From the NCBI RefSeq assembly GCF_002854065.1, contig NZ_CP024147.1: a stretch of 64,000 nucleotides of DNA; one strand, 5' to 3'. This document shows, piece after piece, positions 52,129-52,458 of this stretch (the first letter of the stretch is position 1; every line of letters starts with the position of its first letter). The translations under genes were made by a program, and so were the position numbers. This stretch comes from Escherichia coli (GTDB lineage: Bacteria; Pseudomonadota; Gammaproteobacteria; Enterobacterales; Enterobacteriaceae). Under the pieces are notes generated by a model. That model saw only the letters and a list, made by a program, of their open reading frames with translations, made no database searches and was not told the DNA's origin.

Positions 52129-52458
52129 ATGAAACCTTACTCCACGCTTTTTCTTTTCACCCTGCTCACGCTGACCACCGTACCGGCCCAGGCCGATATT
52201 ATCGACGACACCATTGGCAATATTCAGCAGGCGATTAACGATGCTTATAACCCTGACCGTGGGCGAGACTATGAAGATTCGCGCGACGACGGCTGGCAGC
52301 GTGAAGTGAGCGACGATCGGCGCAGACAATATGACGACCGCCGCCGCCAGTTTGAAGATCGTCGCAGGCAACTGGACGATCGCCAGCGCCAGCTTGATCA
52401 GGAGCGTCGGCAGCTGGAGGATGAAGAGCGGAGAATGGAAGATGAGTATGGGCGATGA
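52129..52458 (+). CDS. yjdP: small secreted protein YjdP with charged heptad repeats
   Basis: 109 aa from MKPYSTLFLFTLLTLTTVPAQA (signal peptide); C-terminal RRRQ(Y/F/L)(D/E)D x6. Confidence 0.8.
   Translation: MKPYSTLFLFTLLTLTTVPAQADIIDDTIGNIQQAINDAYNPDRGRDYEDSRDDGWQREVSDDRRRQYDDRRRQFEDRRRQLDDRQRQLDQERRQLEDEERRMEDEYGR

Follow-up and report, generated by a model that had tools for sequence, protein, structure and literature searches.

The small protein YjdP of Escherichia coli ends in six tandem heptads, RRRQYDD RRRQFED RRRQLDD RQRQLDQ ERRQLED EERRMED, encoded in frame by codons 64-105 of the gene (52318..52443, + strand) within the stretch of 64,000 nucleotides analysed here (the window; contig NZ_CP024147.1 of assembly GCF_002854065.1). 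An array of this kind raises two questions: whether it is a repeat whose number varies between strains by slippage, as a sequence-only reading of the locus had suggested it could, and what kind of rod, if any, it would form in the periplasm.

YjdP belongs to a named repeat family

The coding sequence (52129..52458, + strand) has 109 codons plus the stop codon, and its product matches the NCBIfam model NF041443, "DDRRRQL repeat protein YjdP", with 149.8 bits (E=2.2e-44; curated cut-off, 90 bits), residues 1-103 covering profile positions 1-101 of 101. The architecture of that family, which comprises a signal peptide, a D-I-I-D-D-x-I-G-N-I-Q-Q-A-I-N-D-A-Y helix, an acidic linker, the heptads and an aromatic-x-R end, is present in the window's YjdP, and the protein could be aligned over its full length with 14 homologues from at least seven genera. 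E. coli XJ34 carries an annotated yjdP with 100% identity to the coding sequence, and the 561 bases around the heptads match that strain to the same extent, while comparison with YjdP of K-12 (b4487) shows that the mature proteins are identical and that the signal peptide alone differs. RefSeq annotates the same ATG (52129), and the NF041443 name is used in every E. coli genome inspected. The Pfam family PF28054 (YjdP) is precomputed on a 99%-identical homologue and on all the listed homologues; a scan of the window's YjdP with a Pfam model set that does not include PF28054 returned only DUF7900, below threshold (E=0.039).

Since NF041443 is named after the repeat and used by RefSeq, and PF28054 is found on the homologues, the heptad repeat of YjdP is already catalogued and named; what is new here is the constraint analysis, the series of heptad alleles and the RcsB-type promoter model. 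Neither family record attaches a function to the module, in agreement with the sequence-only reading, which had none to assign. In the literature that mentions yjdP, where the gene is never the subject, we found no experiment on export, localisation, structure, partners or phenotype, and a literature search for b4487 returned nothing relevant. Weak NCBIfam matches to FlbB, RNase Y and HlyD (E 0.0025-0.075) were set aside as compositional coiled-coil matches, far below the cut-offs of those models. Some homologues carry automatic names ("RNase H-like nuclease", "Skp family chaperone", "membrane protein involved in colicin uptake"), which were likewise discarded as low-complexity mis-annotations without family-model support.

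Other reading frames overlap the array, and the periodicity might belong to a gene read from the minus strand or in a different frame: frames of 129 aa (52090-52479) and 119 aa (52235-52594) are listed on the minus strand, together with a TTG-started extension of 133 aa from 52057. We consider this next to impossible. Between-species substitutions are overwhelmingly synonymous in the + frame from 52129, with dN far below dS, and this is the frame that NF041443 covers and RefSeq starts at the same ATG. The TTG at 52057, moreover, falls within a conserved upstream DNA motif, which is kept even where the upstream gene lies on the other strand. Because of the dN/dS analysis the + frame was taken as coding and the overlapping minus-strand frames were dismissed.

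A heptad periodicity mainly at the protein level

In full, the tail reads SDD, the six heptads, then EYGR and the stop codon. The range first given for the array, 52312-52446, contains the heptads proper (52318-52443) and includes in addition the preceding DD and the following E. Six tandem charged heptads at the C-terminus are borne out by the translation and by a shuffle test, the residue identity of the tail at lag 7 being 0.62, a value that 20,000 shuffles never reached at lags 2 to 14 (mean of the shuffle maxima, 0.28). At the DNA level, identity in the heptad region is 0.61 at lag 21 and 0.65 at lag 42, with 0.24-0.46 at other multiples of 3, and Tandem Repeats Finder reports for 52312-52397 a period of 21 (3.5 copies, 69% matches) and a period of 42 (2 copies, 78%). 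A 21-bp DNA periodicity, as originally noted, is therefore present at lag 21, but since the 21-bp units are just 29-71% identical to one another in pairwise comparison, the pattern is mainly one of the protein.

The array had also been described as made up of Arg, Asp, Glu and Gln only, and this is contradicted by position 5 of the heptads, which is Y, F, L, L, L and M in turn. Across 15 members of the family (89 heptads) the profile is [R/E][R/Q/E]R[Q/R][L/Y/F/M/I][D/E][D/E/Q], with a hydrophobic residue at position 5 in 89/89 heptads and Arg at position 3 in 80/89. R, D, E and Q account for 58 of the 87 mature residues, and 69% of the tail is charged.

The heptads are conserved one by one

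The six heptads align one-to-one across at least seven enterobacterial genera: heptad 1 always has Tyr at position 5, heptad 6 has Met or Leu there, and the last place is always taken by the acidic EERR-type heptad. Between Escherichia and Citrobacter, dN is 0.03-0.08 for the heptads, 0.12-0.14 for the N-terminal part and 0.21-0.33 for the signal peptide; dS is saturated, at values above 1.5, and dN/dS is below 0.05 overall. These alignments indicate that the heptads are the most constrained part of YjdP, under strong purifying selection, and that the array is ancient, each heptad being individually distinct and having its own orthologue in other genera.

Heptad number is almost fixed in E. 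coli

Alleles that differ by whole heptads do exist. The database holds YjdP proteins of 95, 102, 109, 116 and 123 aa, and the alleles with 4, 5, 7 and 8 heptads trace to at least seven independent events in E. coli, Shigella, E. albertii and Citrobacter. The heptads lost differ by lineage (1, 2, 3 or 6, or two together), and in Citrobacter and E. albertii duplications have affected either heptad 1 by itself or a 42-bp block of heptads 1-2. The most frequent allele of 102 aa represents a clean deletion of 21 bp between GA(C/T)-CGCCGC microhomologies. Both the distinct events and this deletion would suit a slippage-prone module whose copy number tunes or diversifies YjdP between strains.

Against this stands the scarcity of such alleles: the identity band expected for a heptad deletion contains just 21 of 5,405 E. 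coli records (at most ~0.4%), 18 of which carry the main 102-aa allele, so that ~99.6% or more of 5,404 complete E. coli genomes are without a heptad deletion, and none of 60 evenly sampled records had a shortened yjdP in either search. Of the features of a contingency locus tested on the array, neither near-identical DNA units (the 29-71% given above) nor frequent strain differences were found, and orthologous heptads are kept across genera without turnover or homogenisation. Because the heptads are ancient, individually distinct and the most constrained part of YjdP, we do not regard the array as a slippage-driven variable module, a reading that is largely refuted already and to which we give very little chance.

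Copy number in E. coli is almost fixed at six, with rare in-frame gains or losses of 21 or 42 bp. What remains of the proposed variation by slippage is the rare whole-heptad alleles of 4-8 units; near-fixation, the dissimilarity of the units and cross-genus orthology speak against the rest. The sequence-only reading had named two findings that would count against it, an invariant repeat and a known function. The comparison of repeat number among strains yielded the first in near-complete form (~99.6% or more of the 5,404 genomes), yet the array is without a known function.

Predicted structure of the tail

From an alignment of 15 mature sequences AlphaFold2 predicted a continuous helix over mature residues 33-86 (residues 55-108 of YjdP, ~54 residues; 52291..52452, + strand), with pLDDT 83-96 over the heptads. 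The pTM of the monomer was 0.41, and confident tertiary or quaternary packing was absent. A model of two copies joined by a Gly-Ser linker gave the same helices, with helix pLDDT as in the monomer and a pTM of 0.46; a Foldseek search with it gave no match at E <= 0.001 and was uninformative. A PDB profile search found no homologue with a solved structure, just M protein, designed helices and helical bundles, and DASH Hsk3, at E >= 0.03 and compositional in nature.

The charges of the tail are placed as a helix would require. At i+3 and i+4 there are 36 opposite-charge pairs (18 + 18) versus 2 same-charge pairs (1 + 1), an outcome reached in none of 20,000 shuffles, for which the mean net value was 1.3 ± 6.3. 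Drawn as a helical wheel, the heptad has R3, D6 and D7 on the side away from a hydrophobic seam, whose flanks are positions 1 and 2, mostly Arg.

The tail had been likened to single-alpha-helix (SAH) or coiled-coil spacers. Long helices that run without a break and are highly charged make up SAH (ER/K) domains, known from myosin VI/X and caldesmon, as well as trichohyalin-type R/E/Q rods, and the YjdP tail resembles both in its long charged predicted helix and its dense i+3/i+4 pairs of opposite charge. It is unlike SAH domains in having an invariant hydrophobic residue in each heptad and in combining Arg with Asp rather than Glu with Lys, and unlike the known examples in belonging to a bacterial protein predicted to be exported, with a helical part of just 42-54 residues. 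Of the SAH features tested, the long helix (predicted) and the dense opposite-charge pairs are present, and freedom from a seam is not. The likeness thus holds for the predicted helix and the charge pairs and breaks down at the seam, which a pure SAH lacks; judged from sequence and model, the tail would combine an SAH feature, the salt-bridge ladder, with a non-SAH one.

A pure SAH (ER/K-type) spacer would be a monomeric rigid rod that holds the N-terminal helix at a distance or fills the periplasm, its hydrophobic residues being incidental. The high charge, the strongly optimised i+3/i+4 ion pairs, the confident AlphaFold2 prediction of an isolated helix without a partner, and a copy number conserved as expected of a ruler would all suit such a rod. 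We doubt it, while granting it a modest chance: position 5 is hydrophobic in every family heptad and is heptad-specific (Tyr in heptad 1, Met/Leu in heptad 6), a dN/dS below 0.05 indicates constraint above the needs of a composition-only spacer, and Asp, a residue of low helix propensity, occurs as often as Glu.

The other half of the comparison, a canonical coiled coil, would make YjdP a stable parallel dimer or trimer like Lpp, serving as an envelope strut. Braun's lipoprotein Lpp is a periplasmic trimeric coiled coil that ends in YRK, and YjdP is like it in being a small enterobacterial envelope protein made mostly of heptads with an aromatic-x-basic end (YGR versus YRK). Heptad periodicity, one of the two coiled-coil features tested, is present (lag-7 identity 0.62) and is exact over 42 residues. 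The PDB profile matches are to coiled coils (M protein, designed helical bundles, DASH Hsk3), and the pTM of the linked two-copy model lies above expectation for unrelated helices, although this support is indirect. The second feature, hydrophobic residues at both a and d, is absent: each heptad offers one hydrophobic core position, and Arg, Gln or Glu stand at a distance of 3-4 residues from it, with Arg at the other candidate core positions. Parallel packing would, by inspection of the heptads, set Arg flanks against Arg flanks in heptads 1-4, and antiparallel packing would be just partly charge-complementary. YjdP also differs from Lpp in having no Cys in the mature protein and no lipobox, and no C-terminal Lys for attachment to peptidoglycan. 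With the PDB matches themselves compositional, a canonical coiled coil is in our judgement quite improbable.

The sole matches outside the family in a full-library HMMER search with the tail, for example QLEDGRRQLEDGRRELEE, had E values of 1e-4 to 1e-7 and were composition-driven; they are to what we take to be X-X-X-Leu-X-X-Gly heptad-repeat proteins (YhgE/Pip-type). These resemble the YjdP tail in having one Leu per heptad, with Q/E before it and acidic residues after it, and differ from it in length (1,182-1,512 aa) and in the Gly that closes each heptad. Common ancestry of the two is not supported.

Signal peptide and N-terminal half

As the sequence-only reading had it, YjdP bears a signal-peptide-like N-terminus. 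Judged by the n/h/c rule, MKPYSTLFLFTLLTLTTVPAQA (residues 1-22; 52129..52194, + strand) opens with a basic n-region, continues into a hydrophobic core of 12 residues and has Ala at both -3 and -1, with cleavage predicted after AQA and before D, and this junction (A-x-A followed by D) is conserved among YjdP homologues. The core contains a degenerate 9-bp repeat, TTCACCCTG CTCACGCTG (FTL LTL; 52156..52173, + strand). Other lineages of E. coli have a perfect repeat at this site, (TTCACGCTG)n, in which the number of units varies, and alleles with 3-7 units give yjdP lengths of 339-375 bp.

Behind the predicted cleavage site AlphaFold2 places, with low confidence, an amphipathic helix, DIIDDTIGNIQQAINDAY (residues 23-40; 52195..52248, + strand), the helix itself being modelled over mature residues 3-18 at pLDDT ~51. 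Ile and Tyr lie 3-4 residues apart in it, and the motif is conserved across the YjdP family. The acidic linker that follows (residues 41-54; 52249..52290, + strand) is predicted to be disordered, with pLDDT <50 at mature residues 21-30, and its length and sequence differ between genera.

A conserved promoter with an RcsB-box-like site

To examine the upstream region we aligned ~85 nt before the start codon from 11 loci, representing at least seven genera and at least five different upstream genes. Two conserved islands stand out in otherwise diverged DNA: TTGAGAwTccTCCgCT and, after 23 nt, TAnnnT. The first, TTGAGATTACTCCGCT in the window (52057..52072, + strand), is invariant or nearly so in the 11 loci, and it occurs once in the window versus 0.10 expected. 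The second corresponds to a -10-like hexamer, TAACGT (52095..52100, + strand), and its T, A and final T are invariant in 11/11 upstream regions. A Shine-Dalgarno-like AGAGA (52117..52121, + strand) lies 8-12 nt before the ATG; it is GAGG in K-12, and its position is partly conserved.

The first island holds an RcsB-box-like 14-mer, TGAGATTACTCCGC (52058-52071). The published consensus of the RcsB box is TN(G/A)GAN4TC(T/C)NA (PMC7913699), and the yjdP box agrees with it at 7 of the 8 specified positions, the last base being C, not A, in 11/11 loci. So loose a consensus is expected by chance ~2 times per 64 kb, and the box by itself is therefore weak evidence; the argument is carried by conservation and spacing. 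In MG1655 rprA, the RcsB box TGAGACGAATCTGA is followed after 23 nt by TACTAT at -12..-7, and the box centre lies at -42.5 from the annotated +1. The two promoters are alike in having an RcsB-box-like 14-mer, 23 nt and TAnnnT, with the box centre at -42.5, and because the geometry is identical to this rprA calibration we predict that yjdP transcription starts near 52107. These alignments point to an own promoter for yjdP with a conserved RcsB-box-like site in an rprA-like position, from which we infer that yjdP may depend on RcsB.

A promoter consensus scan found no sigma-70 -35/-10 pair before yjdP. TTGAGA was ruled out as a -35 box, the spacer to the conserved TAnnnT being 32 nt, and two "terminators" called by the scan were spurious, both lying within yjdP on the minus strand in the CGC-rich repeat.

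Published expression data bear on the same point. Inhibition of LolCDE raised yjdP 9.5- and 10.6-fold, alongside wca, rcsA, ivy, osmB and yjbEFGH (PMC5105897). Since the LolCDE inhibitor also induces RpoS and Cpx genes, including cpxP (PMC5105897), the response is not Rcs-specific. Another dataset gives yjdP 5-10 times as many reads as its upstream neighbour rpiB, and the two genes changed in opposite senses (PMC6286996 supplement); CsiR has a genic ChIP peak at yjdP, which was repressed 3.5-fold on CsiR induction (PMC5217608). The supplements of Rcs-related papers that we searched for yjdP gave no match, save a 1.4-fold change in one. Taken together, yjdP is probably switched on by envelope stress.

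A proposed periplasmic rod with a docking seam

The reading to which we lean, with somewhat more confidence than doubt, is that YjdP is an envelope-stress-induced periplasmic helical rod, stiffened by salt bridges and bearing a conserved docking seam one residue wide. With its own promoter and an RcsB-box-like site positioned as in rprA, YjdP would most likely be made when Rcs signalling of envelope stress is triggered. Export by Sec and removal of the signal peptide behind AQA would then leave 87 mature residues, in which a short amphipathic helix of acidic character is joined through a disordered acidic linker to a single straight helix of ~54 residues (~8 nm). R3, D/E6 and D/E7 on one face would form a continuous i+3/i+4 salt-bridge ladder that stiffens this helix, and the one hydrophobic residue per heptad would leave a narrow, Arg-flanked seam. 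The seam most likely serves docking, whether of another copy (antiparallel, if any), of YjdP's own N-terminal helix or of an envelope partner, and YjdP would act in the periplasm as a structural or binding protein under envelope damage.

The same stress setting could suit a quite different protein, a hydrophilin/LEA-like protectant that is largely disordered, becomes helical only on dehydration or binding, and buffers the envelope in osmotic or desiccation stress. The extreme hydrophilicity of YjdP (R, D, E and Q at two-thirds of mature positions), its co-induction with the osmotic/desiccation genes otsB, osmY and osmC and with colanic acid genes, and the low-confidence prediction for its N-terminal half would fit. 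Position-specific conservation and a fixed register, however, favour a defined structure, and AlphaFold2 confidence is >90 over the heptads, so that we rate a protectant as improbable, on a par with the canonical coiled coil.

A further comparison is with CpxP, Spy and ZraP (the LTXXQ family), which YjdP resembles in being small, helical by prediction, signal-peptide-bearing and envelope-stress-induced. The LTXXQ motif is absent from YjdP, and no Pfam LTXXQ/Metal_resist match was found at E <= 0.1.

A stronger version, which we regard as unlikely, holds that YjdP is a direct RcsB target and that its fixed-length six-heptad helix (~6-8 nm) serves as a calibrated periplasmic strut, ruler or adaptor, docking through its Leu seam with another copy of itself or with a component of the outer membrane or peptidoglycan. 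Were this true, the near-fixed copy number would be a length requirement and the alleles with 4-8 heptads a ready-made length series. The heptad finding as originally posed matters little, the repeat having given its name to a curated family and strain-to-strain variability being largely absent. The gain is a modest one: an orphan y-gene becomes a testable case, with an rprA-like conserved promoter, every heptad under selection and natural length variants. If YjdP is a true Rcs effector, it would be a soluble, rod-shaped addition to the few envelope-stress proteins without a known mode of action.

Distribution and genomic context

Of 5,426 complete E. coli genomes searched, 5,404 gave a yjdP match. 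The gene is dispensable, as shown by the 22 genomes without a match, by one genome in which it is disrupted by IS1 and by another in which it is frameshifted. Among 1.84 billion representative proteins scanned with HMMER, just 50 cluster representatives matched the YjdP family. Their sources are Escherichia, Shigella, Citrobacter, Klebsiella sp., Buttiauxella, Cronobacter (including Cronobacter dublinensis) and Entomohabitans, and the family is thus narrow, confined to a few genera of Enterobacteriaceae.

At every locus examined yjdP borders the phn locus, or what is left of it, on the distal side, facing phnP where this is present. A functional link between yjdP and phn is unsupported: the genes are convergent, and synteny outlasts the decay of phn. 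The upstream neighbours across loci are rpiB/als, a hybrid histidine kinase, a nitroreductase, a metallo-beta-lactamase-fold gene or a transporter. In the window yjdP lies beside a hybrid histidine kinase and a GNAT acetyltransferase, a junction common to just 34 genomes, whereas in K-12 it lies beside rpiB/als.

Between the convergent yjdP and phnP a GC-rich hairpin repeat element was detected by folding (52482..52530, no strand assigned), the minimum free energy of 52456-52556 being -61.2 kcal/mol (z = -4.9). A scan of 51800-52700 against Rfam gave just sub-threshold chance matches, on this downstream hairpin. The yjdP>>><<<phnP site is listed as a hairpin/G-quadruplex (HPGQ) element (PMC5100583), and the copy number of the hairpin element differs between strains.

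A variable tandem repeat in the signal peptide of YjdP

The truly variable-number repeat of yjdP is not the heptad array, for which the sequence-only reading had envisaged slippage, but (TTCACGCTG)n, a perfect tandem array of 9-bp units that encodes (FTL)n within the signal-peptide core in a subset of E. coli. When yjdP 5' ends were compared for this repeat (loci L013, L011, L010/L020, L012 and L021), it comprised 3–7 units, corresponding to gene lengths of 339, 348, 357, 366 and 375 bp, and it makes the hydrophobic core of the signal peptide longer. The carriers are rpiB-linked yjdP alleles, one O25b:H4 genome among them, and in an evenly sampled set the repeat was present in roughly 8–10% of genomes. 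In the window its counterpart is a degenerate 9-bp repeat, TTCACCCTG CTCACGCTG (52156–52173).

Within heptad 2, deletions of 3 or 6 bp in the CGCCGCCGCC run reduce RRR to RR or R, yielding YjdP variants of 107–108 aa (homologues P0003, P0015, P0019 and P0020). These deletions disrupt the heptad register, whereas 21-bp events preserve it. Since the shortened variants derive mostly from metagenome assemblies, some of them may be sequencing errors.

Genomic neighbourhood of yjdP

Upstream of yjdP, the place of the K-12 als/rpiB genes is taken in this strain by genes for a sugar ABC transporter, for a hybrid sensor kinase/response regulator and for an N-acetyltransferase of 210 aa (window 51275–52060 and further upstream; positions 1–6061 of locus L002). 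The transporter and the hybrid kinase are similar to O-island 167, described in PMC10128022, and the acetyltransferase–yjdP junction was found in only 34 of 5,426 genomes. The annotated acetyltransferase gene is shorter than the mechanically called 261-aa GTG ORF, which is an overextension of it.

A conserved footprint precedes yjdP, consisting of an RcsB-box-like motif (52057–52072) and a -10-like element (52095–52100), with a 23-nt spacing between the two that is identical to that of the rprA promoter. Three upstream genes that are unrelated to one another, namely rpiB, the hybrid kinase gene and the GNAT gene, each have their TGA stop codon inside this motif, and the edge of the variable island thus coincides exactly with the putative yjdP promoter.

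On the phn side, yjdP still adjoins yjdM or phn remnants even in genomes with a lost or fragmented phn operon, as in Cronobacter (L008), C. rodentium (L014), Entomohabitans (L016) and Klebsiella sp. (L019); the gene acts like a stable landmark beside a junction prone to recombination. The convergent yjdP and phnP genes are separated by a GC-rich hairpin repeat element (52482–52530), a position included in the list of hairpin/G-quadruplex elements of PMC5100583, and folding of 52456–52556 gave -61 kcal/mol (z = -4.9). Compared with this window, the hairpin region of K-12 is 51 bp longer and carries a second copy of the element, while the yjdP–phnP gap of O157:H7 is shorter.

Finally, two complete genomes carry a disrupted yjdP, one with an IS1 insertion that truncates it (strain FLI21, L005) and the other with a frameshift (strain UCPROB-002, L004), indicating that the gene is dispensable, at least in some backgrounds.
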